In this document: positions 3,261 to 57,691 of the stretch, piece by piece
How the letters are laid out: each line of letters starts with the position of its first letter
Position numbering within the stretch: the first letter of the stretch is position 1
Assembly (NCBI GenBank): GCA_038146805.1
Contig: JAYQSH010000003.1
Coordinates: 48,519-112,518 of the forward strand
Direction of reading: 5' to 3'
DNA length: 64,000 nt
DNA from: a bacterium
Lineage (GTDB): Bacteria; Cyanobacteriota; Vampirovibrionia; LMEP-6097
Made by a program: the position numbers and the translations under genes
Notes under the pieces: model-generated
Databases searched by the model: none
Seen by the model: the letters and a program-made list of their open reading frames with translations, nothing else
Told to the model about the DNA's origin: nothing

Positions 3261-3302
3261 TAGTTTAATTATAACTTGTTAACACTCACTAGGTACTATT
3301 AA

Positions 3303-3536
3303 GGGCGTGCTTCCAAACCCGTAATAAGTATCTCGAGTCTTTAGATTTGGGCATAAGTAGGGTTTGGTTAGACACGCCTAACAAAAGAATCAAACACCGT
3401 CGCTTAGTGAGTTTCACGCAGTGAAACAAGCTAAGCGTAAGGTCGTTTGTGGGACTGATTTCTAACCCCATTTTCTAGTGATTTTAACATTTCACTGTAT
3501 TTTAAAATTCAAAATGGGGTTTGGAATCAGTCCCAT
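3303..3536 (+). repeat. 234-bp highly structured dispersed repeat, copy 1 (plus orientation)
   Basis: Near-identical copies at 18581..18814 (reverse) and 33755..34177 (interrupted by a MITE). Three extended hairpins: GGGCGTG..CACGCC, CGCTTAG-GTTTCAC-gcag-GTGAAAC-CTAAGCG, and GGGACTGATT..AATCAGTCCC. Confidence 0.85.
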
Positions 3537-3776: not shown

Positions 3777-4178
3777 CTAGCTCACATTTGAAAACTCAGC
3801 AACTCTTGCGTTTGTAGCAAAAACCCACATCACGTTAATTTCATCTTGATAAGCTTTTTCATTTTCAGATCGAGTAGTGACCGTTTCTTTTAATTTAGCG
3901 CTTGCAGTTTGAGTCCATGCAGTATCACTTTTACTCAAATCTTGTACTATTGCAGCAACTGCTTGTCTAACTTCGGTAGAATTTTGAGGAGTAGAAGTTT
4001 GAGGAGTAGAATTTGCTTGAGAAGTACCAGGCAATGTTTCTGGAATTTTTGCTTGTTGTGGTTCTGTTACTTTTAATGCATCTACAGTTGAGCTTTTAAT
4101 TGAGCCAGAAGACTTTATGGGCTTTGGTGCACTTATTAATTTATTTGCTTCTACAGATTTATTTAGTTCTCCAGCCAT
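3777..4178 (-). CDS. hypothetical protein, S/T/Q-rich (133 aa)
   Basis: ORF, 3-nt spacing to downstream ORF, low-complexity N-terminal half. Confidence 0.45.
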   Translation of the reverse strand: MAGELNKSVEANKLISAPKPIKSSGSIKSSTVDALKVTEPQQAKIPETLPGTSQANSTPQTSTPQNSTEVRQAVAAIVQDLSKSDTAWTQTASAKLKETVTTRSENEKAYQDEINVMWVFATNARVAEFSNVS

Positions 4179-4871: not shown

Positions 4872-5591
4872 ATGCCAAGAAAAAACAGAAAATTATTCGC
4901 CGACGCTATTTACCATGTATATTCAAGGGGTAATTGCAAAAAAGAAATTTTTAAATCAGACAAAGACAACAAAATATTTTTAAAGATTTGCCAAGTTGCC
5001 GCAAAAAAATTCAATTTTGCAATTTTTTCTTATGCGCTCATGAAAAACCATTATCATCTTTTAATACAAACACCTGATGCAAACCTGCCGGAGATCATGT
5101 GCTTTATCAATCGAACATATGCAAATTACTTCAATAAAGAATATCAACAAGTAGGCTACGTTTTTCAAGGCAGATATAATGCCAAACTAGTTGACGATAA
5201 TGAATACTTGAGGACTTTAATTGCTTATATAAATCTTAACCCCTATGCCGCAAACATTGTCACTGAACCAAGTACATACAAATGGTCAAGTTGCAAAGAA
5301 CTATTAATGCAAAAAGACTTCAATGGTTTTTTGCATATTAACTATGTTTTAAAACTCACTGGAGATTTTGCCAGCTTTTTAGAGGCACACATCTACGATA
5401 AAAACTTAAAAATGGACTCAGAAATTTTTTACCTGACAAGCAAACTAAAATCACTTTTAAATTCAGACGCATTTGAAAAATTAAATAGCAAATCTCAGGT
5501 AAGAAAACTCAAAGAAGAATATAAGTTAACAGCAAAAGAAATAAGCTCGGTTATAAACTTGTCTAGAAGCAGTGTTTATAGATTAATCTAA
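4872..5591 (+). CDS. REP-associated tyrosine transposase (RAYT), IS200/IS605-type Y1 HUH enzyme with C-terminal HTH-like extension
   Basis: HUH motif HYHLL, catalytic-Tyr context FQGRYNAKLVDD, flanked on both sides by inverted REP units. Confidence 0.75.
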   Translation: MPRKNRKLFADAIYHVYSRGNCKKEIFKSDKDNKIFLKICQVAAKKFNFAIFSYALMKNHYHLLIQTPDANLPEIMCFINRTYANYFNKEYQQVGYVFQGRYNAKLVDDNEYLRTLIAYINLNPYAANIVTEPSTYKWSSCKELLMQKDFNGFLHINYVLKLTGDFASFLEAHIYDKNLKMDSEIFYLTSKLKSLLNSDAFEKLNSKSQVRKLKEEYKLTAKEISSVINLSRSSVYRLI

Positions 5592-5593
5592 TA

Positions 5594-5664
5594 AATGAGA
5601 CAAAAATAACCCGGTCCGAAGTGTCTTATAAATGAGACAAAAATGACACGGTCCGAAGTGTCTT
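5594..5664 (-). repeat. REP doublet (two tandem 34-bp units) downstream of RAYT, opposite orientation to the upstream unit
   Basis: aatgagacaaaaataacccggtccgaagtgtctta then aatgagacaaaaatgacacggtccgaagtgtctta. Confidence 0.8.
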
Positions 5665-5908
5665 AGTAGACAGAAACTAATTTTCTGCCACGTTTTTGTT
5701 CAAATTTTACTTTACCTTCAATAATTGAGTACAAAGTATCATCACGACCGCGACGCACATTGTTACCCGGGTGAAACTTAGTACCACGTTGACGAACGAT
5801 AATGTTACCAGCAATAACCACTTGACCGTCATAACGCTTAACTCCAAGTCTTTTAGACTCTGAATCTCTTCCGTTTTTAGTACTACCTACACCTTTTTTT
5901 GATGCCAT
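5663..5908 (-). CDS. rpmA: 50S ribosomal protein L27
   Basis: [25 protein letters not shown]...[11 protein letters not shown]; no N-terminal propeptide. Confidence 0.95.
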
Positions 5909-6329: not shown

Positions 6330-9300
6330 TTACGCTGACAGGTTCCATGAAGCCTCTCCTAATTGAACTTTCTCTTTTTGATTAGCAAGCATTATATCCA
6401 AAACATTTGTTGAAGAAAATGGATCTGCTTGTATCCACAAGTCTAATCCAGGTCCTACCGGAGCAGGTCTAGCTGGCGGTCGAGGTACAGCCGGTTCTTC
6501 TGCTTTAACTGGTGCTGGAGCAGGTATCTTAGCTCTTTGAGTTACTGCTTGATAATCATTTTCAAAAAGCTCTAAAAATCTTGCAAAAGAAGAAAGTGAC
6601 TTAGCAAATTCATCTCTTGAAATCATTGTTGTTAGTTGACTTTCTCTTCTTGTCAAATTCTCGTTACCAAAAACTAGATTTAAGTATTCAAACACTGATT
6701 GTTCATCAGCTGCTCTACCTAAGAAGCTCTCAGGATTTGATAGAGATTGAGGATAAGTCTCTCTCAAGAAAGTAGAGATTCTTGAACCTAATTCATTTTT
6801 AAATGCAGTAACATTTAAACTACCATCATTATTGATATAACCCGCTACATACAATCTATCTATGAACTCTTGCTCTGTCATATTTGGATTATATTCTTCA
6901 CCATAGTTATTAAATCTATTAATAAAGTCTGTAGCAGCTTGAGCATTAGCTCTTGCTTCAGAGCTATTATCGACAGGAACAACTTGCCCTCTTTCATTGG
7001 TGTTATAAAGTTCAGCGGCTGTTCTATTAGGATCATAAATCATGCCAAATCTGTATGCTAACTGCATAAGCTGTGAAAAATCACCATTAATATTGACTTC
7101 TCTTGTTTGTCTATCAACATCAAAACCAAGATTTTGCACCAAGCTATCTAAAGCTCTAGGATTAAGATCATATCTAACACTATGATCAGCTTCTTTAAAG
7201 GCTTTGTAAGGTTCATAAAATCGTAAATCTCTATCAGCAAAAGCTAAAAGTGAGTCAGATAGTCTTTCATCATTACTATTAATAAAATCCAATGCATCTC
7301 CATCAGCACTTCTTAATAGAGCATCAAAAACTCTAAATCTAGCTGCCATATCATCATCACCAGAGAAACTAATCTCTTCTAAATATTTTTCATAAGCATT
7401 GGCAAAAGCTCTATTATTAGGATCCATTAATTTTTCTCTAAAAGCTTTCATATCAAAATCTTGTGGTCTAACAAGATCAAAATCAAAAGCAGCATAACTT
7501 TTTAAATCTCTTGCAATACCAGGATCAACACTCTCTGCTTGTCTCATCTTAAAGAGTTGCATTAAAGCTCTTCTTTGAGCATCTATATCAGTAATCCCAG
7601 CTTTTGTTAAATCTTCAACTAAATCCTTATTCTTATCGATAATAGATGCTGGAATAGAATCAGATTGATATAACTGATAAAACTCTGTTAAATTCAAATC
7701 TAATTGATTCTTGTATTTGTCTTCAGCAAGAAGAGTATTAAGTTTTGCCATTTCAGCTTTTAAACCTAATCTATCAAACTCAAGTGCATCTAGATACATC
7801 AAACCAGCATTATCATTATCACTAGCACGAAACTCATTAGCAGCAGTAACTAAATCAGCGATATCACTATCAAAACTCTCTGGTAACTTACCAATAGAGC
7901 TAAGGTATTCTCTGATTTTAGTAAGTTTTCTATGATTAGGACTTTCACCTCTTGCAATCTGCAAGCCAATATCAGTGATTAAGTCATTTATATAATCAGA
8001 ACCTGAACCACTCATACCATCTGCAAAAGCAGCAAAAATTTTCATTGTCTCTGAACCACCAAGCTCTTGAGTTTCAGGTGGAATATTTAAACCTAGTGCA
8101 GCAATAATGCTATCAAAATTTGTATCTAAAGTTACTGCAACTTTAGAGATGTCCGTTTCAGCTAAAGAACCTACAATACTATCAATTGCAGATTTTACAG
8201 CCTCATCAGCAAGTTTGGTATCGATAGTAGCAACATCATGACCGTAAAGTGCTAATTTTGTTCTTAAAGCTTCGTCAATTCTGTCTCTAAGATCAGCTTC
8301 AGGATCAAGATCAGCTTCAGGATCAATATCTACGCCTTGTTGTTTTTGGTTAATTCTTTCAACAAGAATTCTTGAGATATAACCTTTAAGTGATTCATTT
8401 AGTCTATCATTTAATCTCGGTAATGAAGCCACTTGCTCTTGATAAGTTGTTTGAGAAAGACTCATTTGATGAATAGTTCTCTTTAATGTCTCTACACCCT
8501 CTGCATAGATAGCTTTTGCTTCATCAATAGCCTTATCAACACTAACTTGAGCTCTAGAACGAAGTTGAGTTTTAATCTCATCCATCTTTATATTTTCAGA
8601 TTTAGTATAGTTTTCAAGCTTTCTAACTTTAACATCAGCAGGTTTAGAATGATCATACTCAACAGCATTAACAACCCACTGATTATTATCAGCATCATGT
8701 TGTTTTACAACTGTCGTAGTTTTATCATTATCAATATATCGATAGACTTTGTATTGATTTATATCAAAATCCTCAGCTTCAACATTGATACCCATAGTTT
8801 TAAGAAGTTTAGTTTTTTTATCACCTGTTATTTCTACATCATGATTAATTAATCCAGTAGTAAAAGTAGCAGTACCAGCAGCAGTTAAAATAGCTATTTT
8901 ATCTGCTTCTGCTGCTGTATCAATAATACCTACTCTTATCACATCCATTAATTGAGCTAGTTCTTCTTCAGTGATTTTTTCACCACCATCGCTATTTGCC
9001 TCACAAAAACCATCTGCTCCAGTAGCACCTGCATAAATTAACTTTTTGAGATTGGTCTTAGTAGCATCATCAAACGAAGAAATTAAACAATGAAGGACAT
9101 TATTTCTTTCTTTCCAAGCTTGCATTAAATCTGCTGAATATCTCATTGAAGATTCGTAATCATTGTTATCAAAAACAGCAAAAATCTCTTCTAACTGTTT
9201 TACTCTCTCTTCAAAATTCTGAGCAGTAGTTCCTGCTGTCTTCACCTCAGAATAAAGAGACTTATCAACAACTGCATCATTATATGTTTTTGTGCTAGAA

Positions 9301-9962
9301 TTATATTCACCATTGTTATAAGTAAAGAACTGCATATCAGCAGCTCTAAGTTTAGGATTAAATACTCTTATAAAATCAACAAATTCTTGTACTCTTGCTT
9401 TCTTGTCTTTTGGTTCAGCAGTGCTAATCGCATCAGAGAGAGTCTTACGATGAGCTTGTAACATCTCCGTAATCTCATCTCTAACATTATCAACCATCCC
9501 TGATTTAGACTCATCAAAAAGAGTTAAAACTTGTGCCATCTGTCTTGGATCAGATACTCTTGTTAAAGATCCGTTTGTAACCAGTTCATCAACATCACCA
9601 CGAAGATCAGCTAGGGTAAGATCATACTCTGATCTTGCACCATTATCACTAGTATAAATGTTACTTGTTTTGTATACTTCAATCTTACCTTCACCGTTTA
9701 ACCTAATTCTTAAACCGAAAGTTGGATTTGCGTACCTATCACCTTCTTCAAAAACTAAAATAAAATCATTATCTGCAAGTTGATCAACTCGAATTTTGTC
9801 ATCATCGCTATAGTTCGTATACCACTGATCTAGAAACTCTGTTTTAGGAACTTCATCATTAGGACCAGCGTATAAAGTATCTACTAATTGTGTCACTCTT
9901 TGAGGTAAATTTGTTGTTTGATTTGCATAGATCGAAGCTGAATTAATATCGTTCATATACAT
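6330..9962 (-). CDS. very large hypothetical acidic protein (1210 aa) with internal DLDPEA tandem repeat and Pro-rich C-terminus
   Basis: Long uninterrupted ORF with normal codon periodicity; no recognised catalytic motif; repeat DLDPEADLDPEADL near 8291..8336; C-terminus PAPAPVKAEEPAVPRPPARPAPVGPG. Confidence 0.7.
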   Translation of the reverse strand: MYMNDINSASIYANQTTNLPQRVTQLVDTLYAGPNDEVPKTEFLDQWYTNYSDDDKIRVDQLADNDFILVFEEGDRYANPTFGLRIRLNGEGKIEVYKTSNIYTSDNGARSEYDLTLADLRGDVDELVTNGSLTRVSDPRQMAQVLTLFDESKSGMVDNVRDEITEMLQAHRKTLSDAISTAEPKDKKARVQEFVDFIRVFNPKLRAADMQFFTYNNGEYNSSTKTYNDAVVDKSLYSEVKTAGTTAQNFEERVKQLEEIFAVFDNNDYESSMRYSADLMQAWKERNNVLHCLISSFDDATKTNLKKLIYAGATGADGFCEANSDGGEKITEEELAQLMDVIRVGIIDTAAEADKIAILTAAGTATFTTGLINHDVEITGDKKTKLLKTMGINVEAEDFDINQYKVYRYIDNDKTTTVVKQHDADNNQWVVNAVEYDHSKPADVKVRKLENYTKSENIKMDEIKTQLRSRAQVSVDKAIDEAKAIYAEGVETLKRTIHQMSLSQTTYQEQVASLPRLNDRLNESLKGYISRILVERINQKQQGVDIDPEADLDPEADLRDRIDEALRTKLALYGHDVATIDTKLADEAVKSAIDSIVGSLAETDISKVAVTLDTNFDSIIAALGLNIPPETQELGGSETMKIFAAFADGMSGSGSDYINDLITDIGLQIARGESPNHRKLTKIREYLSSIGKLPESFDSDIADLVTAANEFRASDNDNAGLMYLDALEFDRLGLKAEMAKLNTLLAEDKYKNQLDLNLTEFYQLYQSDSIPASIIDKNKDLVEDLTKAGITDIDAQRRALMQLFKMRQAESVDPGIARDLKSYAAFDFDLVRPQDFDMKAFREKLMDPNNRAFANAYEKYLEEISFSGDDDMAARFRVFDALLRSADGDALDFINSNDERLSDSLLAFADRDLRFYEPYKAFKEADHSVRYDLNPRALDSLVQNLGFDVDRQTREVNINGDFSQLMQLAYRFGMIYDPNRTAAELYNTNERGQVVPVDNSSEARANAQAATDFINRFNNYGEEYNPNMTEQEFIDRLYVAGYINNDGSLNVTAFKNELGSRISTFLRETYPQSLSNPESFLGRAADEQSVFEYLNLVFGNENLTRRESQLTTMISRDEFAKSLSSFARFLELFENDYQAVTQRAKIPAPAPVKAEEPAVPRPPARPAPVGPGLDLWIQADPFSSTNVLDIMLANQKEKVQLGEASWNLSA

Positions 9963-10087
9963 ATATAGCTAAGTAATACAGGTTTTTGATAATAATTTCT
10001 TATCAAAAACTAAGACTAGCTCACTTTGTAGAATTAAGAACTAGTTAAGACACATTAAGGTCTTATTAAGATAAAAGGAAAATCAAC

Positions 10088-18814: not shown

Positions 18815-19336
18815 ATTATTAATAGATCAATTAAACTCACTTGATTCAGTCTAGGAAGTTTAGGTTCGTCATATTTAGAGGAGGTTAAGTATATATATCA
18901 CAAGTATGGCACTCAGCCGTTTTACTGCAGGACCAATAGAAGTTGCATTTAATGTTTGCACTACCAATGCAACTTATGAAATGTAGGATATCTCACAAAG
19001 ACTCGTTGGTGGTTATGAAACAACAAGCATGAATGTTATGGCAGAGATAATGAGAAATGTTAGGATTTCTCTTTTAACTCTAGAGTATCACTACTATAGG
19101 AGTACTTATTGGGCTTAAAATAGCTAAGCTAGATATTAAGGTTGCTGGTAAAATCAAAAGACTTATATAATTTATAAGAAAAGAATTTTCACAGCAATTA
19201 GGTACCATTTCAGCAGATAAAGTTCACTCAACAAGAAATAATTATCTAGGTTAGTTGCTAAATAACTTCACAAAAAAACTAGATAACTTTCTGTTAAAAC
19301 ATAGTTTTAAAACTAAATAAGAAAAAGGGAGAGTAG

Positions 19337-19537: not shown

Positions 19538-19584
19538 CAAGGCTATTTTGAGCTTTATAAAGGTTTTGGGCATAATACAGTCAT

Positions 19585-20358
19585 ATGAAAATCCTTATTT
19601 CAAACGATGATGGAATTTGGGCTGAAGGAATTAGCAGCCTAAGTTCGGTACTTGCAAAAAGCCACGAAGTTTATGTCTGCGCGCCTGATCGCGAGCGCTC
19701 AGCAACTGGACATTCAATGAGCTTACACAAACCTCTAATGGTTACACCAATGAAAGCATCTGACATCAACAGCAATGCTCAAGCCGCTTTTATGACATCT
19801 GGCACACCTGCTGATTGTGTCAAAATTTCACTTGGCGCACTTTTTAAAGAAATAGAGTTTGATTTGATGGTATCTGGCATCAACCATGGTCCTAACCTCG
19901 GAGTTGACGTATTATACTCAGGCACTGTGTCTGCGGCAATGGAAGCGATGCTTTTTGGTTTACCTTCTATTGCTTTTTCGCTTTACAGCTACACCTCAAA
20001 AGAATTTGACGATGCGGCACATTGGGCAAAACAATTTATAGAAAAAAACAAAATCCAAAAACATATACCGGCAAAATCATTTTTGAATATAAATATTCCG
20101 CCCGGAGCTCGCGATAATTACAAAGGCGTTGAAGTAACCAAACTTGGTAACAGAGCCTATTGCGAAAACTACGAAGAGCGTCAAGACCCACGAGGTAACA
20201 AATACTTTTGGCTTGCTGGCGCACCAATAGAAGGACTTGAAACCGAAGGTACAGATGGTTGGGCATTGATGAACGGAAAAGTTTCAATTACGCCTGTGCT
20301 TTTTGATATGACCTATAGAGATCAAATTGAAACCTTAAAAAGCAATTTAAAAATATAA
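19585..20358 (+). CDS. surE: 5'/3'-nucleotidase SurE
   Basis: MKILISNDDGIWAEGISSL...PDRERSATGHSMSL. Confidence 0.93.
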   Translation: MKILISNDDGIWAEGISSLSSVLAKSHEVYVCAPDRERSATGHSMSLHKPLMVTPMKASDINSNAQAAFMTSGTPADCVKISLGALFKEIEFDLMVSGINHGPNLGVDVLYSGTVSAAMEAMLFGLPSIAFSLYSYTSKEFDDAAHWAKQFIEKNKIQKHIPAKSFLNINIPPGARDNYKGVEVTKLGNRAYCENYEERQDPRGNKYFWLAGAPIEGLETEGTDGWALMNGKVSITPVLFDMTYRDQIETLKSNLKI

Positions 20359-20373
20359 GCATCGTGCCAGTCA

Positions 20374-20555
20374 TAAACTGATGCTCTAAACTCCACCTGA
20401 ATCTTATAAAAGCCTTTAAAACAAAGATATATTAAGAGTTTTTTGATACATACAGTGCCATACTGTAAATACAAAATAAAATCATCAAAAGTCTTTTAGT
20501 TATATTGGTTTTTTGAAGATTTATATTTTCAGGTGGAGTTTAGAGCATCAGTTTG
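20374..20555. mobile_element. MITE (~182 bp) carrying the IS1-family terminal inverted repeats taaactgatgctctaaactccacctg / caggtggagtttagagcatcagttt
   Basis: Same termini as the transposase-bearing IS at 22878..23919; internal sequence ~90% identical to the copy at 53971..54152. Confidence 0.85.
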
Positions 20556-20619
20556 TAAAACCTAGCATCATGAGGGTAATTGATATCACTAAGCTTAGAG
20601 CAATGATAAAATTTTTCAG

Positions 20620-25298: not shown

Positions 25299-25484
25299 TT
25301 AAACTGCTGCTCTAAACTCCACCTGACTAGTTAAAAACTATTGTAAATAGTGTGTTTTGCAGAGTTTTTTTAGGAGATAGTCAGGTGCTTATGTAATTAC
25401 AAAATAATAATCCCTTAAATTCAAATATTGTAAGGCTTTTTTTTTGATTTTTTATTTTCAGGTGGAGTTTAAAGCATCAGTTTA
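25299..25484. mobile_element. MITE (~186 bp) with IS1-family TIRs
   Basis: ttaaactgctgctctaaactccacctg ... caggtggagtttaaagcatcagttta. Confidence 0.8.
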
Positions 25485-25526
25485 TAAATTACAAAAAAAA
25501 TTTCTAGCTCTATAATAAAACAAGTA

Positions 25527-26636: not shown

Positions 26637-29600
26637 CTAAGAATTAGTGCTAGATAAACTAGCAGAAGCTAGAATTTTTTCTAAAGCACTTAGCGTTTCA
26701 TCATTATCGTTAATAGTATAACGTGAGCCCAGTGATACTTTGACCTCACGATCCATAGATTTTAACTTTAAAATCAAAATCTTTTTACCAAAATTTTCTG
26801 ATCGCGACATAAAAGCTTTGAGACTATGAAAAAACTGAAAGTAATCATCAAGCTGGTCAACATCAACTTGCATATTTATAGTACCCATACCATCAAGATC
26901 TTCAAGGCTTTCTACCATGATAGACTGATCTCCCTCAGAGTGTTTCGACAAAGTACCCTTCACCAACAAACGCTTACCTTTAACGATTAATTCTTCAAGA
27001 TCATTAAGCTGTCTACTAAAAACCACACCTTCACAACGTGATTCCATATCTTCTAGTTGCATAATACAAATTGGTTTTTTTGATTTTGTGATTTTCTTTT
27101 GAAAATTTGTAATCAAACATGGAACACTCACCTTTGCACCATCTTTACGATTTTCTAAACTCTTTAAAGTATCACTTGCAATAGTAGAAGTCAAAGGTCT
27201 AATGGAAGCCATAGGGTGATTAGACACAAACAAGCCCAAAAGCTCATATTCACTAGCTTGTTGCTCTCTTTCTGTAAACTCTTGTTCAGCACCACCCACA
27301 AATTGAGGAGCTTGATTAAAAGCAAAATCATCACCAGCAAGTGCAAACAAACTTTCTTGTCCTTTTGCTTCTTGCTCTCTAAGTTTTTTTGCAGAACCAA
27401 TAAAGATCTCCAAGTTATCAAACATGGCTTTGCGACCAGCTCCTAAATTATCAAGTGCTCCTGATTTTATTAAAGATTCAGCAGTTTTTTTATTGAGGGT
27501 TTTAGGATCAAGCCTTGAACAAAAATCATAAAAATCTTTAAAGTCACCATTAAGTTGTTTTTCTAAAATAATTGCCTGTGAAGGTGCATCACCAACACCT
27601 TTGATAGCACGCAAACCAAAAGCAATATAACCACTTGGCATTTCACCATTACTTAATTTCAACTCTTGATTTTCATATTCTTGCAAAGGAGTAAAATCCT
27701 CTTTTGATAAATTCACGTGAGGTGGCACTACTTTTATTCCAAGCCTCTCAGCTTCTATGATATAAGACTTAAGCCTGTCAGTATCACCACTTGAAGACAT
27801 CATCAAAGAACTTAAATATTCAACAGGATAATGTGTTTTTAGGTAAGCAGTTTGATAGGTCACAAAACCATAAGCAGTTGAATGCGACTTATTAAAACAG
27901 TACTCAGCAAAAGCTAACATCTGCTCAAAAAGTTTTTCTGCAAGCTCTTGAGGCACAGGGTTAGCATTAGCCGCACAACCTTTAACAAATTGATCTTTAT
28001 AAGGTAATAAAACTTCAGGTTTTTTCTTACCCATTGCTCTTCTTAAAAGATCCGCTTCACCCAATGAAAAACCACCAAGCTTTTGTACAATAAGCATAAT
28101 TTGTTCTTGATAAACAATTGTTCCATAAGTAGTTTTTAAAATTGGTTCAAGCAAAGGGTGCTCATACTTGATTTCTTTTTTACCTGATTTACAAGCAATA
28201 AATTCATCAATCATTCCAGTATCTAAAGGACCCGGTCTATAAAGAGCAATCAAAGCAGAAATATCTTCCATATTTCTTGGAGCTAAATCTCTAGCTACTT
28301 GTTTCATTCCTGCCGAAGTCTCCAACTGAAAAACTCCTGCCAAATTACCACTGCAAAGAGTATCATAAGTAGCTTTGTCATCAAGCGGAATATTGTCGAT
28401 ATCAATTTTATTACCAGTTCGCTCTTCTATCATGACAAGAGCTTTTTTAATCATGGTCAAGTTACGTAAGCCCAAGAAATCCATCTTGAGCAAACCCATA
28501 TCAGCACACTCTTCCATTGGAAACTGCGTAATAATACTACCATCATTACTTTTTGAGATTGGAATAATCTGATCAACAGGCTCATCAGAAATAATCACAC
28601 CAGCCGCATGTACACCAAAAGTTTTGTTTAGTCCTTCATTTTTTAGAGCAAGATCTATAACTTCTTTTGCTTCAGGATCGTTTTTATATTTTTGAGAAAA
28701 CTCATCATGATTTTCTATCATCCAATCAATTGATCGCGGCTTACCACGAACAACAGGAATTAATTTTGCAAGTTCCTCTGCCTTTGCATAAGGGTACTCC
28801 AAAACTCTAGCCATATCTTTGATAACTGAACGTGAAGTAAGACGGTTAAAGGTGATAATTTGACAAACACTCTCTTCACCATATTTTTCACGCACATACT
28901 CTATAACCCGCTCTCTACCATCAATACAAAAATCCGTATCAATATCGGGCATGCTTTTTCTTTCTGGATTCAAAAACCTTTCAAAAAGCAAATCATATTT
29001 CAGAGGATCAATATTGGTAATCCCCAAACAAAAAGCCACCAAAGACCCAGCCGCAGAACCACGACCCGGACCAACAGGAATATCTTGTTGACGTGCCCAA
29101 TCAATAAAGTCCCAAACAACAATAAAGTAAGAAGCAAAACCAGAATTATTCATGATTTCAAGCTCTAGATCTAACCTTTCTCTAATTTCTTTACTAAGCT
29201 CACCATTAAAACGCTTATGAGCACCTTCATAAGCAAGTTCTCTCAAATAAGTTTCAAAGCTATGCCCCTCAGGTATTTTAGGGTCTGGCATATGCATCTT
29301 CGGATTCGCCAACAATTGATAATCTGCAATTTTATTATAGATCTCAGTTGGTGTTTGATATACAGCATCCAAAATTGCATCACTAGGTAAATGATCTTGA
29401 AAAAGTTGCATCATTTCAGAACCAATCTTTAGGTATTCATGCGAAGAAAATTTCATTCGTGGAAAATCAGAAATATATTTTTGTGTTTGCAAACACAAAA
29501 GCGCATCATGAGCGCTTGCGTCTTCTTGGTTGGTATAGTGGCTATCATTAGTTGCTACAAGCTTGATACCAAGCTCGTTTGCCAAAGCAAGTAAACGCGG

Positions 29601-30186
29601 ATTAACATCCTTGTCTTCTTGATATTTATGATCCATAATTTCGATATAAAAATCATCTTTAAAAATCTTTTGGTATTCAAGCGCCGCTTCTTTTGCCTCT
29701 TCGTCTTTGTAATTGAGCATTAAGTTTGAAACCTCACCGCCAAGACAAGCAGATAGAGCGACCAAATCCTGTGAATATTGTTTCAAAAATTCTTTTGAAA
29801 TTCTGGGCTTGTAATAAAAACCATTGATACAAGACTCAGAAACAATTTTAATTAGATTCTTAAAACCATTATCATTTTTAGCGAGTAAAACCAAATGATA
29901 AAGCTTACATCTATGCTCTTTACCTTTTAGAGTATGATCATTATTAATCACATAAACTTCACAACCAATAATTGGTTTTACCCCATGATTTTTTAGCAGT
30001 GTTATAAAACTTATAAGCACCAAACATTGTGCCATGATCAGTTAATGCTAAACCCGGAATATCATTTTCTGCGGCTTTTTTACAAATATCCTCAAGTCGA
30101 GACGCACCATCTAACAAAGAAAATTCTGTATGCAAATGCAAAGGAATATGTTTTGCTTCTTTAAGTTTGTCTTGAACTTCTGGCAC
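26637..30186 (-). CDS. dnaE: DNA polymerase III alpha subunit; frame interrupted at a T6/A6 run (29989..29994), leaving the N-terminal PHP segment in ORF 29959..30186 and the remainder in 26637..30035
   Basis: The N-terminal fragment HIPLHLHTEFSLLDGASRLEDICKKAAENDIPGLALTDHGTMFGAYKFYNTAK continues in another frame as NHGVKPIIGCEVYV...; the rest reads as full-length DnaE. Confidence 0.9.
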
Positions 30187-31246: not shown

Positions 31247-31265
31247 TATTGAGCGAAATTAAAAA

Positions 31266-31692
31266 AATGAGTTAATAATAAGCCGGGTTCTGTATGGCTT
31301 GCGCCATTAACTATCATCTATCTGGACCTAAGCATTACTGCTAGGTTCATGCGGAATTCACAGACCCAAAAAGTATACGAGTAATTCCTTTTTGGTTAAG
31401 CCTGCTTACCTTGCAGCTTCAGCGGGGTTTACCGAGCCTAAGCTTCTCAACTTAGCTGGTGAGCCCTTACCTCACCTTTACACCCTTACCTTTGTGACAC
31501 CGAACTTTGATTTAAGACCAAAGATGCTAAAGCAAAGTTCGATATCACAATTCATCCTTGCGGATTAAGGCGGTATTTTTCTGTGGCACTATCCTCACGT
31601 TCACACGTACTGGCAATTAACCAGCAACCTACACTCATATACTGCCCGGACTTTCCTCTCAAAAAATTGAGCGATAGTCTAATTAACTCAAA
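31266..31692 (-). ncRNA. rnpB: RNase P RNA, bacterial type A
   Basis: Reverse strand carries GAGGAAAGTCCGGGC (P4), AGTGCCACAGAAAAATACCGCC, AAGGTAAGGGTGTAAAGGTGAGGTAAGGGCTCACCAGC, GGTAAACCCCGCTGAAGC and the 3' ACAGAACCCGGCTTAT. P1 pairs GAGTTAAT (31682..31689) with ATTAACTC (31269..31276). GC content is well above the surroundings. Confidence 0.88.
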
Positions 31693-33733: not shown

Positions 33734-33754
33734 TCCAAGAGTAAAACAAATAAA

Positions 33755-34177
33755 GGGCGTGCTTCCAAACCCGTAATAAGTATCTCGAGTCTTTAGATTT
33801 GGGCATAAGTAGGGTTTGGTTAGACACGCCTAACAAAAGAATCAAACACCGCCGCTTAGTGAGTTTCACGCAGTGAAACAAGCTAAGCCTAAGGTCGTTT
33901 GTGGGACTGATTTCTGACCCCATTTGCTAGTGATTTTAACATTTCACTGTATTTTAAAATTCACTAACTGATGCTCTAAACTCCACCTGGAAATATAAAT
34001 CTTCAAAAAACCTATATAAATAAAAGACTTTTGACAATTTTATTTTGTATTTAGCGTGGCGCTACATGAATCAAAAAAGTCATAAAATACCATTGTTTTA
34101 AAGGCTTTTATAAGATTCAGGTGGAGTTTAGAGCATCAGTTAGTAAAATTCAAAATGGGGTTTGGAATCAGTCCCAT
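33755..34177 (+). repeat. 234-bp structured repeat, copy 3, split by a MITE insertion (33964..34143) with 9-bp target duplication taaaattca
   Basis: 33755..33963 matches the 5' 200 bp of the element, 34153..34177 matches the last 25 bp; taaaattca is present on both sides of the MITE. Confidence 0.85.
33964..34143. mobile_element. MITE (~180 bp) with IS1-family TIRs, inserted into repeat copy 3
   Basis: ctaactgatgctctaaactccacctg ... caggtggagtttagagcatcagttag; internal sequence is the reverse complement of the 20374/53971 MITEs. Confidence 0.85.
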
Positions 34178-39796: not shown

Positions 39797-39833
39797 AAGC
39801 ACCTAATGTAAACCAGCATTAGGTGCTTTTTTA
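39797..39833 (+). terminator. rho-independent terminator
   Basis: aagcacctaatg - loop - cattaggtgctt followed by T6. Confidence 0.7.
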
Positions 39834-39870
39834 TCAAATATATAACCTTTCACGCTTTGTATATACACAG

Positions 39871-40470
39871 ATGTCATTATCAGGTACTAGCACAAAAAGA
39901 CATTCAGAGGCAGCACTAAGAGCTCAACTTGAATCAATGCACCCTGGTCAAGAGAAGTCACAGCTAACAGCTGGGCAAATAACAAATACAGCACAAGCAA
40001 TTGAACTTCTTCAGCAACATTCATTACACTTAGCTGGCAAAACTGAACAACCTCAAACTTCTTTAGAAGATGTACTGGCTGCTATTGATGCAAGTAAAAT
40101 AACAAGAAGAAGCTTAGATATTTTAGTAAACATCGTTTCGAACACAAAAGAAGCTGCTACGAAAGCAAAAGTAACAGAAAAAATAAAAGACGCATTAGAA
40201 GCAGATCCTAAATTAGCACCAGCTTCAACTAATCCAGATAGTTTAAGAGCACTAATAGATTACATTTCAAGTGACGAAGAAACAAAAAAAATAAAAGTCA
40301 GGGAATTTGCAAATAGTGAGCGTAGCCTCAGCATAGAATCATTCGCAAATTCAATTAGGGCAAACTCTGCTTTAAGAGGATTATTAAATATAGCAAAAGA
40401 TCAAGGCTTTGAAAGTGATATTAAAGCTCTCGAAAAAGAATTCACAGAACGTTTTACCCAAGAAAAGTAG
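39871..40470 (+). CDS. hypothetical protein (199 aa from Met at MSLSGTS; the track's 39823 start lies inside the terminator hairpin)
   Basis: ORF, hydrophilic. Confidence 0.5.
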   Translation: MSLSGTSTKRHSEAALRAQLESMHPGQEKSQLTAGQITNTAQAIELLQQHSLHLAGKTEQPQTSLEDVLAAIDASKITRRSLDILVNIVSNTKEAATKAKVTEKIKDALEADPKLAPASTNPDSLRALIDYISSDEETKKIKVREFANSERSLSIESFANSIRANSALRGLLNIAKDQGFESDIKALEKEFTERFTQEK

Positions 40471-40493: not shown

Positions 40494-42612
40494 TTGAGAG
40501 CAGTATTAGCAAAAAAAATTATCGAATCAAGAAAAGCTTTTGCTGTAAGAGGTCAAGCGGCACTAAACACAAGCAAAAAATTCAATACCGTATCAGCATC
40601 AGCTGTAGAGATGGATCTCATCACAAAAGGGAAAAACACTCAGGCACAAAGGTTTAGCTTAGATGAAATTTTATACAAGATCCTTGAAGCTAAGGACCAG
40701 CAAGCAGGCAGAGAAGCCATTTCTAGTTATCATACAATGATATCGGTTCTTGAAAACAGGTGGGTAAATGGCACTCCTGCTGAACAAAGAAATGCTGCTG
40801 AACAAATGGAAACTCTTTATGCAATAGTTAAAAATAAATCAATAATGGGTGATATTCATGGAGTTTTTCAAGCAACAATAATAGAAAATATGGATATTCT
40901 TGCAGAAATCCCAGATGAACTAAATTTTGCAACGACTAACAACCAAGAACATCTTTATACAGGTCTTACCAACAGGTTAGCTCAACTTGGAATCACAGCC
41001 TTACCTAACACACTTGGGGCTTTCGTTAGTAGATTTAAATCAAGAGCGAGTGGACTTAGCAAAACTAAGCGAGCAAAGAGCAGAAGCCCTTATACCCGTT
41101 TTATTTCAACAAAATTTACCAACAAAAGATGACTTGCTTGCTGTTGAAGTAGCAAGAGAAGTGACATCTATCGTAGATGAAGATAACAACTATTCTGTAA
41201 ATTTGAAAGCCAAACAAGACGAAGTTAAAAGAGAGATAACTCAAAGAATCCTTAATCAATTTAACTATACAAATGGTCAAGTAGATTTCTCAGATACTTA
41301 CAATCAACAAATAGCAGATTTATATTTTGGTGGTCATTATTCCAGCATTGTTATAGACAAAGCTAATATTGAACGCTATATCAATTCTCACTTTCCAGCG
41401 ATTGTAACCAAATCACAGAATGACAGCAATTTAAGGATCCTTGCAGATACATACCTAGAACTTGGGCAAATTCAAGCTAATCCAAATCACTATATCCAAT
41501 ACCTAAAAGGATTTATAGAAAAATCTCTAATAAACCCAAGATCGATATCTGGACTTAAGTCGATAGTAAGCAGATTACAAAATGATGGTGCAATAACAAG
41601 TACAGAAGAAACTCGATTAAATAAAGCTTTTGATTCTTATACACAAAACCCAAACCAAGCCGCAAATGCATTTGAAGATTTAGCTAATATCTTCTTAGGA
41701 CAACCGGGTTATACCTTTGAACTATTTTATTCAGAAGTTTATACTGCAGCAAACTTACATGATAGCTCTAGCTTTCACTCAAACTCAGATCACTTATTAG
41801 AAGATATTAGCTCTTCAGTTGAACAATTAAGAGATGACATTATTAATTCTGATCAAGAAGTAGACGCAGAAAGGATTTTATTCAATATACTTGTTGAAGA
41901 TGAAATTAAGACTACTAATCTAACCGCTGGAGAAAAACATCCTGCTCAAGGGAAACAAGGATTATTAGAAAGATTAATGTCATATCAACCACTTGGCAGT
42001 GAAGATATAACAAAAGGTACACCAAAATTAGTTGCCCTTGCAGAACTAATTAATAGAGTCGGCGATCAATTGCGTTCACAAAGTATAACTCAAACTGAAT
42101 ATCAAGACACTTTGAAATATATAGAAGATCGACTTGGTATCAAGATGAAAGCAGCAGCAACAATCTATAGAGCAAACGCAGGCGTCTTAGCCAAGTACCA
42201 AGATTACTGTGCATCATTAAACACATTTGCCCATAAAAGTGTTGAGCTTGCAAGATTAAATATTTCTCTTGATAATGGAGCTGATGGAGCTCTAGCTAGA
42301 AGAATAGAAAAATCACTTGGTAAAGAGGTTTTTACTGGTGAGCAAATGCAGGCAAATATTGATACTGCTCAAGATTTTGCTCAAAGTATAACAAACGGAC
42401 AAAGTCCTTATGAATGGGCTCAAGCTAATGGCTCTAATAAAAATTCTTTAGTAAGGTTAGCTATGAGAATGTCAGGACAAAGCTCAAGTGACGAGTATGC
42501 AACTATCAAAGGTTTAGAACAAAGAGGAGATCTTAGCTCAGAAAATATAAGCGATATACTTGATTTAATAAGAAATTTTGTACAATATTTTATGAGAGCA
42601 AAGATAAGTTAA
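40494..42612 (+). CDS. hypothetical ~700-aa protein, apparently one gene split into ORFs 40494..41132 and 40987..42612 by a frameshift near a G4 run (about 41020..41035)
   Basis: The ORFs overlap by ~145 nt. The frame-0 tail (SRFKSRASGLSKTKRAKSRSPYTRF) and frame-1 head (MESQPYLTHLG) look like out-of-frame junk, while ...ALPNTLGAF and LVDLNQERVDL look protein-like. Confidence 0.5.
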
Positions 42613-45849: not shown

Positions 45850-46395
45850 ATGGGTCACGCAGCATCAATACTTAAAAGACGATACACCAATTTTTCAGAT
45901 CTCTGAAGAGAATAAAAACTTCGCTGATTTAGGAGTTCTAGGAAGCATGGTGCTTCTAGATACTATGGGAGATGATCTTTCTATTGTGAACGCTGCAAGA
46001 GTTTCTTATGCTTCTGAATCTGATGCATTTGAAGAGCGTGACAAAAAACTAGTTAAGTATTTAGCGAAGCACAAACACTGGACTCCATTTGAACAAAACT
46101 CTCTTAAGTCTAAAGTTTAGTGTCCTATCTATATTGCTCGTCAATGGATGAAACATAGATGCTGGTTTTTCAACGAGATCTCTGTTCGCTATACTATTTT
46201 TGATAACACAGTTTATAAACCAGATGATTTTCGTAAGTAAGCGTTGCTTCTGAAGATGAAATAAACCAATAAAAACTGCAGCGATTTATTCAAGTGCAAC
46301 AAAAATTCGCCGAAGATTCATATAACCAATTACTTGAATTAGGGTTTTTGGGAGAACAAGCCCGTGGAGTGCTTCCCGTAGGTTCGCGCACTTAG
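45850..46395 (+). pseudogene. decayed thyX copy (frameshifts and in-frame stops), ~80% identical to intact thyX
   Basis: atgggtcacgcagcatcaatacttaaa... parallels 47536 onwards; TAG/TAA stops, e.g. at 46118 and 46237. Confidence 0.8.
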
Positions 46396-46465
46396 ATTAA
46401 CACGTCCCTCCCCCGAACCTTGTCATTTTATCTCATTTTTTTAAAAGCTTTAATTTAAAAAAAGT

Positions 46466-46729
46466 CTATGCCGCTATCCCAGAAGCAAATATGGGTTTTG
46501 CTTTATCATAGAGTTTTTGTATAAACTCCATCATAGAGACCTTTGCATCAAAAGGCTTTTCAAAAGCATTTACAAAACTGTCTGTAAAAGATTCAAAGAA
46601 TGGACTCACGACATCGCGATCTTGATGAGTATTGTTATTCTCATCAGGACTCGCAAGAGCTTCTTGATACAATCGAGCAGTCTCATCTCCTAAGATTTTT
46701 GCTCTTTGCATTCTAGGCAAACCTGTCAA
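46466..46729 (-). CDS. hypothetical small protein (87 aa), paralog of 47109..47459
   Basis: About 90% identical to the downstream copy; part of the ~640-bp tandem duplication. Confidence 0.4.
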   Translation of the reverse strand: MTGLPRMQRAKILGDETARLYQEALASPDENNNTHQDRDVVSPFFESFTDSFVNAFEKPFDAKVSMMEFIQKLYDKAKPIFASGIAA

Positions 46730-46772
46730 TTTTGGATTTTAGTCAAAAATGCTATCGTGATTTAAATTAATT

Positions 46773-47039
46773 CTATATTGCTCGTCAATGGATGAAACAA
46801 AGATGCTGGTTTTTCAACGAGATCTCTGTTCGCTATACTATTTTGATAACACAGTTTATAAACCAGATGATTTTCGTAAGTAAGCGTTGCTTCTGAAGAT
46901 GAAATAAAACCAATAAAAACTGTAGCGATTTATTCAAGTGCAACAAAAATTCGCCGAAGATTCATATCACCAATTACTTGAATTAGGGTTTTTGGGAGAA
47001 CAAGCCCGTGGAGTGCTTCCCGTAGGTTCGCGCACTTAG
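46773..47039 (+). pseudogene. second internal thyX fragment (tandem duplicate of 46127..46395)
   Basis: ctatattgctcgtcaatggatgaaaca...gtaggttcgcgcacttag repeated. Confidence 0.75.
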
Positions 47040-47108
47040 ATTAACACGTCCCTCCCCCGAACCTTGTCATTTTATCTCATTTTTTTAAAAGCTTTAATTT
47101 AAAAAAGT

Positions 47109-47459
47109 CTATGCCGCTATCCCAGAAGCAAATATGGGTTTTGCTTTATCATAGAGTTTTTGTATAAACTCCATCATAGAGACCTTTGCATCAAAAGGCT
47201 TTTCAAAAGCATTTACAAAACTGTCTGTAAAAGATTTAAAGAATGGACTCACGACATCGCGATCTTGATGAGTATTGTTATGCTCATCAGGACACGCAAG
47301 AGCTTCTTGATACAATCGAGCAATCTCACGTCCTAAGATTTTTGCTTTTTGCATTCTAGACAAACCTGTCAATTTTGGATTTTGGTCAAAAATGCTATCG
47401 TGATTTAAATTAATAGATATCATAAAATTAAATAATAACAAATAATATATGTAATACAT
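47109..47459 (-). CDS. hypothetical small protein (116 aa as called; the AT-rich N-terminus is probably not coding)
   Basis: Paralog of 46466..46729. Confidence 0.4.
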   Translation of the reverse strand: MYYIYYLLLFNFMISINLNHDSIFDQNPKLTGLSRMQKAKILGREIARLYQEALACPDEHNNTHQDRDVVSPFFKSFTDSFVNAFEKPFDAKVSMMEFIQKLYDKAKPIFASGIAA

Positions 47460-47535: not shown

Positions 47536-48321
47536 ATGGGTCACGCTGCATCAATACTTAAAAACGATAAACCGATATTTGAAATCGATAGTGAAAATCC
47601 ACGACTAGCCAATATGGGAGTTCTTGGCACAATGGAACTACTCGATGTTATGGGTGATGATCTTAGTATTGTCAATGCCGCAAGAGTTTCTTATGCTTCT
47701 GAATCAAATGCCTTTGAAGAAAAAGACAAAAAGCTAGTTAAGTATCTAGCAAAGCACAAACACTGGACCCCCTTTGAACAAAACTCTCTAAAATTTAGAG
47801 TTAAGTGCCCTATTTATATTGCACGTCAATGGATGAAACATAGATGCTGGGTCTTTAACGAAATTTCTGCTCGTTATACTATTTTTGATAACACTGTTTA
47901 TAAACCTGATGAATTTAGAAAACAAGCAGTGCGCAATAAACAAGCAAGTGATGCCTCAGAAGGTGAAATCAATCAAGAACTTGCAAACGAAATTTACGAA
48001 CAAGCAACAAAAACTGCTATTGATTCTTACAACAAACTACTCGAACTTGGTGTCTGCCGTGAACAAGCTCGGGGAGTGCTTCCTGTGGGTTCACATACAG
48101 AATTTATTACAACAGTAAACCTAAGAAACTTTATGCATTGGTATATGCTTCGTGCACCAAAAGATGCACAATGGGAAATCCAACAATACGCACACGCCGC
48201 TCTTAAATTAATTGAACCAAAGTTTCCTGTTGCAATTGAATGTTTTAAAGAGCTACAAGAAGAAGCATTAGAAGATGCTATCAAACTCAAAGAAATCAAA
48301 GATAGTTTAAAAAACAACTAG
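47536..48321 (+). CDS. thyX: flavin-dependent thymidylate synthase
   Basis: ThyX signature KHRCWVFNEISARYT (RHR-x7-S type), 261 aa. Confidence 0.88.
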   Translation: MGHAASILKNDKPIFEIDSENPRLANMGVLGTMELLDVMGDDLSIVNAARVSYASESNAFEEKDKKLVKYLAKHKHWTPFEQNSLKFRVKCPIYIARQWMKHRCWVFNEISARYTIFDNTVYKPDEFRKQAVRNKQASDASEGEINQELANEIYEQATKTAIDSYNKLLELGVCREQARGVLPVGSHTEFITTVNLRNFMHWYMLRAPKDAQWEIQQYAHAALKLIEPKFPVAIECFKELQEEALEDAIKLKEIKDSLKNN

Positions 48322-52623: not shown

Positions 52624-53892
52624 ATGCTAGATATTAAACTTATTAGAAAAGACCCTGAATTTGTCAAAGCGCAAGTTGCAAGAAGAAATGCAGATTTAGT
52701 TGCTGAAATTGAAGCCTTAATTGAACTTGATCTTGAACATCGAAACGAATTACAAATAAAAGAAAATCTTGAAGCACAAAAAAATAAACTTTCAAAAGAA
52801 GTTGGCTTTAAAAAATCAAAAGGTGAAAATGCTGACTCGGAAATAACAGAGCTTAATGAAATCAAAGAAAAATTAAAAGCAATTGCTGACAAAGAACCTG
52901 AATTATTTGCAAAACAAAAAGCTATCCTAGAAAGAATTCCAAATTTACCAGCTTTAGAAATTCCAGATGGCAAAGACGAAGAAGCGAACCAAGAAGTTTA
53001 TAGAAATTTCCCAGCTAAAGAATTTTCTTTTGCAACAAAAGACCACGATGAAATTGGAAGAGAACTTGGACTTTTTGATTTTGAAAGAGGTGTCAAGATT
53101 GCAAAAAGCAGATTTACACTGCTTACTGGTTACGGTGCAAAGCTGGAAAGAGCTCTAATTAATTTTATGCTTGATCTAGCTACCCAAAATGGTTATAGCG
53201 AAATCATGCCACCAATTTTAGTAAACTCAGATTCACTTTATGGCACCGGTCAATTACCAAAATTTGCAGAAGATCTTTTTAAAGTGGCTGACTCAAATTT
53301 ATATTTGATTCCAACAGCAGAGGTACCTTTAACAAATATTTATCGAGATGAAATTTTATCAAGCGATCAATTGCCAATGCACTTGTGTGCTTATACGCCA
53401 AACTTTCGCTCAGAAGCTGGGGCTGCCTCAAAAGACACTAGAGGTATTATTCGCCAACACCAATTTAATAAAGTTGAGCTGGTAACAATTTGTAGTCCAG
53501 AACAAAGTGCAGAACTTCATGAAAAATTAACGCAAAACGCTGAAGCAATACTGCAAGCATTGGCTTTGCCGTATCGCAAAATGTTACTCTGTGCAGGTGA
53601 CATGGGTTTTTCAGCACATAAATGTTATGACCTAGAAGTTTGGTTTGCGGGACAAGGCAAATATAGAGAGATTTCGTCTTGCTCAAATTTTGCTGATTTT
53701 CAAGCGCGCAGAGCGCAAATCCGCTTTAAACGTGATGCAAAAGCAAAAGCCGAATTGGTGCATACAATAAATGGTTCAGGGCTTGCTGTTGGCAGAACTC
53801 TTGCAGCAATTCTAGAATACTACCAAAACGAAGATGGCAGTGTTACAGTCCCCGAAGTTTTAAGAGCCTACGGACTTCCTGAAAAACTATAA
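52624..53892 (+). CDS. serS: seryl-tRNA synthetase
   Basis: N-terminal coiled-coil arm then class II core (..FRSEAGAASKDTRGIIRQHQFNKVE.. motif 2, ..GSGLAVGRTLAAILE.. motif 3). Confidence 0.95.
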   Translation: MLDIKLIRKDPEFVKAQVARRNADLVAEIEALIELDLEHRNELQIKENLEAQKNKLSKEVGFKKSKGENADSEITELNEIKEKLKAIADKEPELFAKQKAILERIPNLPALEIPDGKDEEANQEVYRNFPAKEFSFATKDHDEIGRELGLFDFERGVKIAKSRFTLLTGYGAKLERALINFMLDLATQNGYSEIMPPILVNSDSLYGTGQLPKFAEDLFKVADSNLYLIPTAEVPLTNIYRDEILSSDQLPMHLCAYTPNFRSEAGAASKDTRGIIRQHQFNKVELVTICSPEQSAELHEKLTQNAEAILQALALPYRKMLLCAGDMGFSAHKCYDLEVWFAGQGKYREISSCSNFADFQARRAQIRFKRDAKAKAELVHTINGSGLAVGRTLAAILEYYQNEDGSVTVPEVLRAYGLPEKL

Positions 53893-53962
53893 GACACTTC
53901 GGACCGTGTCATTTTTGTCTCATTTATAAGACACTTCGGACCGTGTCATTTTTGTCTCATTT
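53890..53962 (+). repeat. REP doublet (two tandem 36-bp units taagacacttcggaccgtgtcatttttgtctcattta)
   Basis: Overlaps the serS stop codon. Confidence 0.8.
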
Positions 53963-53970
53963 ATGATTTT

Positions 53971-54152
53971 TAAACTGATGCTCTAAACTCCACCTGAATC
54001 TTATAAAAGCCTTTAAAACAATGATATTTTAAGACTTTTTTGATTCATATAGCGCCACGCTGTAAATACAAAATAAAATTGTCAAAAGTCTTTTAGTTAT
54101 ATAGGTTTTTTGAAGATTTATATTTCCAGGTGGAGTTTAGAGCATCAGTTAG
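53971..54152. mobile_element. MITE (~182 bp) with IS1-family TIRs
   Basis: Nearly identical to the copy at 20374..20555. Confidence 0.85.
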
Positions 54153-54167
54153 TATGATTTTTAGCAA

Positions 54168-56458: not shown

Positions 56459-57691
56459 ATGCTTAACTTTAGAAAACTATTCTATATAAGTAGGGCAATT
56501 AAGTTTTTTATGACTGATATTACTAACATTCAACAAAGAGTAGACTTTTCAAATACTAAATTTCAAAGCTATTTGAAAAATTTAGTTGGCCTAGGAAAAG
56601 CAAGAGCGACACAAGAAGAAATTCAACTTTTTGACCTTTTAGATTCATACACCGACGACAATAAATTAGAACTCAATGAAATTAGAGATATTATTGACAA
56701 TTTAAAAAACCTAGATATCAATCAACTTGTTAGGCAAGGAATAATTAATGTTAACGAAGAAACAAATAAAATTGAAGTTTCAAGTAACAATGTTGACATT
56801 AATGCAGATGGCAGGATCAATACAAATGATAAAGATGCACTTGAATATGTATTAAATTTTGCAGATGCCGGTTTAGATGATTTGCTAGGCATTATTGGTG
56901 ATAAGAGTGCTATAAACAACTACTTAATAGAGAAATGGGCAAAGGAAAAAGGCATAGAAGAAAACGCCTCAATAATCAGTCATTTCAAGGAATACGCAAA
57001 CGGTGAGCGCAAAACAAATATCAATAACTTAAAAACACTTTTTGAAATTTACAATTCTGGAATTGGACAAGAAGATCATAATGACTTAAATGCATATTTA
57101 AGCTTGATAGAAAATCAAGTTGCCACAAGAGTTATAAACTCTTTGGTGAAATTTGAAAATTCAGAAAGTTTTCTAGATGGACTTAATGAAGATACCAGTA
57201 AAAAACAGCTTAGAGAAAATATTGCAGCAGCAATACTAGACTCAAACAATGACCCAGAAAGAACTTCAATAATCACAAGTGCAATTGTTAGAAAAAAAAT
57301 ATCTCTTGTAGATGAAGATTTAACAGGCAAAAATATCTTAGATTTCATCAATAATACTAAAGAAGATAGCAAAAACGCTATAACAATGATGAGAATTTCT
57401 CAAATAGTTAGAAAGCTCAAACTTACAAACGATGAAGCTCAAGACCTCGAAGCTAAATTAATTGAATATTTCAACAGCAAAAAATATACTGTAGCAGCAT
57501 TAATTAACTTAACAAAACTATACCAACGTTTAAAACCAATACATGGCGGAAATACACTCGATGCCCTTGAGATATATGCTCCTGCATTAAAAGACTTTGA
57601 AGCAAACAAAAGCTCTAATCTAAAATACTTAGCTTACTTAGTCAAACTTGAAGAAAAATTTGGCTCTGAAATAAGAGAAGGTGACCCCTAG
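56459..57691 (+). CDS. hypothetical N/K/E-rich protein (410 aa) with a dockerin/EF-hand-like Ca-binding loop
   Basis: DINADGRINTNDKDALEYVL at about 56797..56865 matches the DxNxDGxIxxxD loop. Confidence 0.55.
   Translation: MLNFRKLFYISRAIKFFMTDITNIQQRVDFSNTKFQSYLKNLVGLGKARATQEEIQLFDLLDSYTDDNKLELNEIRDIIDNLKNLDINQLVRQGIINVNEETNKIEVSSNNVDINADGRINTNDKDALEYVLNFADAGLDDLLGIIGDKSAINNYLIEKWAKEKGIEENASIISHFKEYANGERKTNINNLKTLFEIYNSGIGQEDHNDLNAYLSLIENQVATRVINSLVKFENSESFLDGLNEDTSKKQLRENIAAAILDSNNDPERTSIITSAIVRKKISLVDEDLTGKNILDFINNTKEDSKNAITMMRISQIVRKLKLTNDEAQDLEAKLIEYFNSKKYTVAALINLTKLYQRLKPIHGGNTLDALEIYAPALKDFEANKSSNLKYLAYLVKLEEKFGSEIREGDP

Follow-up and report, generated by a model that had tools for sequence, protein, structure and literature searches.

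The window, a stretch of 64,000 nucleotides with a G+C content of 30–40%, carries the gene for the alpha subunit of DNA polymerase III, dnaE, on its reverse strand. The gene is laid out in two reading frames, a short N-terminal fragment (ORF1) and a long remainder (ORF2), which overlap by 77 nt in different frames (Table 1). The original prediction had described this split, and both the coordinates and the frames were confirmed. ORF1 contains the HxH metal motif (HLHTEFS) and ends in 10 out-of-frame codons, and the first approximately 14 residues of ORF2 are out-of-frame read-through without DnaE homology. On the NCBIfam DnaE model, ORF1 matched positions 3–59 and ORF2 positions 48/50 to the end. 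When the intact protein of a same-species contig (L013) was used as the tblastn query, its residues 1–65 were found in frame −2 with 100% identity (ORF1) and its residues 60–1182 in frame −3 with 99.6% identity (ORF2). Since the model and tblastn matches are contiguous, ORF1 and ORF2 are adjacent pieces of one dnaE. The NCBI protein P0126 (1127 aa), which belongs to the 90%-identity DnaE cluster, is identical to ORF2 from the sixth ORF2 codon onwards and is therefore the truncated dnaE gene call of the window itself.

The L013 allele, which differs from the repaired window gene by one amino acid, scored 1294.6 bits on NF004226 (cut-off 1002) in a full-length match, 1284.5 bits on NF005298 (cut-off 1260) and 1255.5 bits on TIGR00594 (cut-off 434). 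Assignment to the error-prone paralog DnaE2 was rejected, as the same allele reached 631 on the DnaE2 model, below its cut-off of 939. The domains PHP, DNA_pol3_alpha, finger, HHH_6 and OB fold (PF02811, PF07733, PF17657, PF14579 and PF01336) follow one another in this order in the precomputed Pfam annotation of protein P0001 and the gene calls. The window dnaE occupies two frames, and the gene is a single frame in eight same-species contigs. As to a second copy of dnaE, which the original prediction had also raised, tblastn found none within the 64-kb window.

Table 1. The dnaE locus and the other private frameshifting indels of the window (positions are those of the window)
Feature	Position	Strand	Remarks
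Whole dnaE (DNA polymerase III alpha) locus	26637..30186	-	interrupted by one extra base
ORF1, N-terminal fragment	29959..30186	-	75 aa, GTG start, start of PHP domain
ORF2, remainder of dnaE	26637..30035	-	1132 aa, in-frame ATG at 30035
Extra base, T on coding strand (A on + strand)	29995	-	between GC and the A6 run
A6 run on coding strand	29989..29994	-	A6 in the window and six intact alleles; A7 in two KKY alleles
A5 to A4	15245	+	239-aa hypothetical, intact in L025
A7 to A5	15301	+	same 239-aa hypothetical as the 15245 deletion; ORFs now 14979-15251 and 15369-15695
T3 to T4 on + strand (+1)	17554	-	splits 239-aa class I SAM methyltransferase (17045-17765), frames -3 then -1
C4 to C3 (-1)	23785	-	seven codons into IS1-like transposase
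G deleted (-1) in locally divergent stretch (relatives GGG)	40461	+	913-aa hypothetical
T2 to T3 (+1)	41034	+	same 913-aa hypothetical as the 40461 deletion
C3 to C4 (+1)	57685	+	splits 1059/1081-aa hypothetical into ORFs 56459-57691 and 57681-59690

The change of frame from ORF1 to ORF2 is +1. Two natural alleles occur at the site in the same species: KKY (L010 and L011), with GCA AAA AAA TAT, and KNH (L012–L017, n = 6), with GCA AAA AAT CAT. The window reads GC-T-AAAAAA-TCAT where the KNH alleles read GC-AAAAAA-TCAT, the match being otherwise base for base, and the extra T is the only dnaE indel relative to each of the six KNH-allele contigs. An alignment of the window with the eight intact alleles (alignment A1) likewise had one gap column, at 29995. 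The window letters at 29983–29997 are GCTAAAAAATCAT, and their counterpart in the intact allele is GCAAAAAATCAT. Comparison with L010 and L011 suggested a C insertion at 29987, flanked by two mismatches; this placement was rejected because the KNH-allele DNA matches the window except for one T.

Deletion of the T or shortening of A6 to A5 yields the same protein (..TAKNHGVKP..; the wild-type junction peptide contains ..TAKNHGVKPIIG..), because GCT and GCA both encode alanine. Thus, the window sequence alone could not separate the two repairs. The original prediction had placed the frame switch within the homopolymer run and had taken the length of the run as the altered feature. The A6 run is present as described, but the switch lies one base outside it, and the run has the same length in the window as in six intact same-species alleles. 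Similarly, of the two run lengths predicted to restore a single frame, 5 nt does so (as would A8), whereas 7 nt does not.

At the 29995 site, an intact allele was found in nine independent contigs of the same species (ENA, Logan and JGI), eight of which read through as 1182-aa genes. These eight intact alleles are 98.8–99.4% identical to the window, and the 90%-identity protein cluster consists of eight intact 1182-aa DnaE proteins (ENA, Logan and JGI assemblies) together with P0126. There were no exact matches to the frameshifted allele in the public JGI metagenome contigs, where intact alleles were found. With the T removed, the window dnaE is 3549 nt long and encodes 1182 aa, collinear with the eight intact alleles and with no further indel or stop. 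All six of the window-private substitutions in dnaE are synonymous; neutral decay would give about 75% nonsynonymous changes, and the probability of six out of six being synonymous is then about 2e-4. The gene is not decaying. The break interrupts the PHP domain downstream of the HxH motif. As dnaE is essential, a consensus genome with a null dnaE allele is not viable.

The best named homologues of the window DnaE come from Melainabacteria, Caenarcaniphilales, Vampirovibrionales or other Cyanobacteriota MAGs from environmental metagenomes, and a scan of genome contigs returned a Loclat bin as a relative at approximately 85%. The organism is environmental and Melainabacteria/Caenarcaniphilales-like, and not a known reduced endosymbiont.

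For the window as a whole, 29 same-species contigs covering 52,577 of its 64,000 bases were compared, and an indel was regarded as private when the window disagreed with all covering contigs. A hypervariable region (6.3–13.4 kb, 30–50% amino acid identity) and the uncovered 20.5–23.7 kb lay outside the frameshift count. Besides the base at 29995, seven private frameshifting indels of 1–2 nt were found, which affect four genes other than dnaE and, near its 5′ end, an IS1-like transposase gene; most of them are in runs of 2–7 nt, and the frame switches were confirmed by tblastn. The methyltransferase gene is intact in L024, L026 and L027. The 913-aa hypothetical, which in the window falls into ORFs 39823–40470, 40494–41132 and 40987–42612 (tblastn frames 1, 3 and 1), is intact in L018 and L020, and the 1059/1081-aa hypothetical in L018, L019, L020 and L034. 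A 291-aa ORF of the IS1-like transposase is retained through another ATG, at 23791.

The original prediction had counted four other genes of the window as broken at short homopolymers and had considered a systematic cause likely. The four broken genes were borne out by both the contig comparison and tblastn. The location in short homopolymers holds for some of the breaks (A5 to A4, A7 to A5 and others) but not for the G deletion at 40461. In favor of a systematic cause, the window has eight private coding frameshifts over 52,577 bases, compared with one in 205,740 aligned bases of the relatives, i.e. a rate approximately 31 times that of the relatives (binomial p = 2e-5). The density of the window frameshifts is about 0.15 per kb, or roughly one per 6–7 kb. 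The ratio of coding to non-coding small indels, classified manually, was 8:8 for those private to the window and 1:18 for those segregating among the relatives (Fisher p = 0.005). The extra indels of the window are therefore blind to purifying selection, like errors and unlike mutations. No common sequence motif was seen by eye around the eight indel sites.

In the two genes that are hit twice, the net change of each indel pair is a multiple of three (−1 and −2 at 15245/15301; −1 and +1 at 40461/41034). The frame thus returns downstream, yet stops between the indels still break the ORFs. The pairing may be due to chance, or it may indicate that the consensus was locally misaligned where strains vary; in the 913-aa gene, identity to L018 is 82% in the middle piece and 92–94% in the flanks. 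Two in-frame length changes are also private to the window: a GAGGAGTAGAAGTTT-like repeat (3987–4010) is 15 nt longer, and 6 nt are missing at 4346, in two small hypothetical ORFs; these changes look like natural repeat-length variation and not like errors. A Pfam scan of 20 adjacent same-strand ORFs for further split genes gave almost nothing, because most of these ORFs are lineage-specific hypotheticals.

A ThyX fragment at 45851–46120 was rejected as a further broken gene, being an old partial duplicate that lies beside an intact thyX and is also found in short-read assemblies. The degraded partial copy as a whole (45851–47380) is located just upstream of the intact thyX (47536–48321), with 79% identity between 45875–46174 and 47560–47859. 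It occurs as a 97–105-aa Thy1 ORF in the short-read contigs L018, L020 and L022, and in the window it is tandemly duplicated with a period of 643–644 bp (46128–46770 and 46771–47380; 95–99% identical).

Several other duplicated or mobile sequences were observed. A MITE-like intergenic element of approximately 215–240 bp is present in three copies that are 98% identical (3298–3536, 18581–18820 in inverted orientation, and 33749–33963); the last of these forms, with its neighbor, a 421-bp segment (33755–34175) that is missing from L010, L012 and L016. A second dispersed intergenic repeat of approximately 185–200 bp, with 83–99% identity and the conserved core AAACTGMTGCTCTAAACTCCACCTGA, is found at 20374–20557, 33960–34153 (inverted) and 53971–54154, with a diverged copy at 25299–25490, and also occurs in L029/L030 at a different locus. 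An IS200/IS605-type Y1 transposase gene (PF01797) lies at 4872–5591 on the forward strand, and 75-bp inverted copies are located at 5591–5665 and 53890–53964. An identical transposase gene adjoins serS in contig L033, and the element therefore appears mobile within the species. The 5′ end of surE (19585–20358) and its upstream region have a duplicate of approximately 170 bp (18262–18432 versus 19566–19737; 91–94%) 1.3 kb upstream, and the intervening 18.0–19.6 kb contain no long ORF.

The region 6330–12900 is hypervariable within the species: a 1210-aa ORF (6330–9962) and its neighbors show 30–50% protein identity to L029, the flanks of the block are 96–99% identical in DNA, and the G+C content of the block rises to 37–40%. 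No family match was obtained for several short same-strand ORFs at 10796–12157. A HisZ-like domain (tRNA-synt_His) and HisG (ATP phosphoribosyltransferase) are fused in one ORF at 59687–61312 on the reverse strand, and the fusion is a 534-aa gene in the relatives as well. A bacterial class A RNase P RNA (213.5 bits) is encoded at 31264–31690 on the reverse strand, between deoC and a histidine kinase gene, and there were no tRNA genes in the 64 kb.

Taken together with the intact alleles of the relatives, the excess of private indels supports the sequencing or assembly error that the original prediction had listed as one of its options, and we consider that the dnaE frameshift is very probably an indel error in the assembly consensus and not biology. 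One spurious T, abutting the A6 run, would have been introduced at 29995 during assembly or polishing, as one in a series of 1–2-nt indel errors scattered through the contig, and the real dnaE would be a normal, intact, single 1182-aa gene. We infer a technical cause from the pattern of the indels, and a consensus error of the long-read type appears the likeliest source. An error of this kind would be expected to leave an excess of private small indels, including indels in conserved coding sequence, and such an excess was found. Some observations point the other way. The most typical error would be a simple change in the length of a homopolymer, and the extra base is not of this type. Moreover, coding A/T runs of 6 nt or more in the rest of the overlap are mostly the same as in the short-read contigs, so that the assembly is not grossly unpolished.

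It is also conceivable that the insertion is real. A very recent, strain-specific mutational event would then have left +1 frameshifts in dnaE and several other genes without any rescue, and could reflect a mismatch-repair-deficient or dying subpopulation. Indels at short runs belong to the natural mutational spectrum too, and the window does contain real private variation, namely the synonymous dnaE substitutions and the in-frame repeat-length changes at 3987–4005. We nevertheless regard an unrescued mutation as improbable. A living population cannot carry a null allele as the consensus form of the only dnaE in view, the five to six genes broken in 52 kb are broken in none of the nine other contigs of the species, and the frameshifted allele is absent from the public JGI metagenome contigs. 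We give next to no credence to the idea that dnaE functions as a split gene, with ORF1 and ORF2 translated into separate polypeptides (75 and 1132 aa) that then assemble. ORF2 has an in-frame ATG at 30035, but there is no ribosome-binding motif before it, the break lies inside the PHP fold, and both ORFs carry out-of-frame junk at their ends. Moreover, all 120 dnaE homologues among the matches listed are single ORFs, none of them split at the 29995 site.

A real frameshift might, finally, be rescued by recoding, through slippage of RNA polymerase from A6 to A5 or a +1 slip of tRNA-Lys on GCU-AAA-AAA-U. Either slip regenerates the exact wild-type peptide, and A-runs are known to be slippery, with frameshifted replication genes (dnaX and dnaG) and their presumed rescue by slippage reported in Blochmannia (PMC3017870). 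Even so, rescue of this kind is very unlikely here: the run is only 6 nt and of unchanged length, as against the long tracts in PMC3017870, the shift is conserved in no relative, the zero-frame stop lies 11 codons downstream and not at the site, there is no Shine-Dalgarno-like AGGAGG anywhere near the site, and RNA folding downstream of it is unremarkable (z = −0.88). The other breaks of the window sit in runs of 2–4 nt, in which slippage is, to our knowledge, negligible. More doubtful still is the full proposition that the extra T is real and that a free-living Melainabacteria-like strain expresses an essential, +1-frameshifted dnaE by A6-to-A5 or tRNA-Lys slippage. If true, a core replication gene would be rescued by slippage in an organism other than a reduced endosymbiont, and the tract would be unusually short for such a rescue. 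The second option of the original prediction, pseudogenisation rescued by slippage as in endosymbionts, is not supported, in view of the unchanged 6-nt tract, the absence of the shift from all other assemblies and the environmental MAG homologues.

Since the polymerase gene is almost certainly intact, the frameshift carries little biological weight. Its value is that of a data-quality warning: split or truncated gene calls of this genome should not be taken for pseudogenes, genome reduction or recoding, and the 1127-aa DnaE call of the window (P0126) is an example of a misleading truncated call. The dnaE case also suggests that the repair indicated by the nearest homopolymer can mislead, as here the run is correct and the neighboring base very probably in error.

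Programmed frameshifts are found in prfB (+1) and dnaX (−1 at A AAA AAG), and we know of no recoding of dnaE. The window site resembles these systems in that a Lys-codon A-run in a replication gene is, in principle, a slippery site. It differs from them in having no conservation, no A-site stop or rare codon, no Shine-Dalgarno sequence and no structural stimulator; by the standard of a programmed +1 shift of the prfB type, the site is unconserved, the stop is 11 codons downstream, AGGAGG is lacking nearby and the fold is ordinary, with the z-score given above.

Blochmannia has frameshifted dnaX and dnaG genes that are thought to be rescued by slippage (PMC3017870). The window shares with the poly(A) frameshifts of Buchnera and Blochmannia an AT-rich genome and a replication gene that is interrupted beside an A-run and is otherwise undegraded. 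In those endosymbionts, however, the tracts are long and contain the indel, and different populations or species have some of the shifts in common; in the same study, the tracts counted in coding sequence are at least 9 bp long, and an indel in a tract of 11 A is cited (PMC3017870). In the window, the run is 6 nt and unaltered, the shift is present in one assembly only, and the organism is environmental and Melainabacteria-like. Thus, where a long A/T tract (about 9 nt or more) containing the indel would be expected, there is a T outside a 6-nt run, and instead of a frameshift maintained across strains without decay, there is one that is absent from nine contigs and has no metagenome matches. 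The lack of decay does hold for the window, but it fits an error equally well.

In MAGs, the fragmentation of gene calls by indels in the long-read consensus is a documented artefact (Sereika et al. 2022, PMC9262707). The dnaE case departs from this artefact in that the erroneous base was inserted beside a run and is not part of it, and in that the density of coding frameshifts is moderate, about 0.15/kb. It is like the artefact in that the window has an excess of private indels of 1–2 nt, mostly in short runs, which fall in coding sequence regardless of selection; apart from these indels, the genes they hit are undamaged, and the short-read assemblies of the same species are free of these indels.
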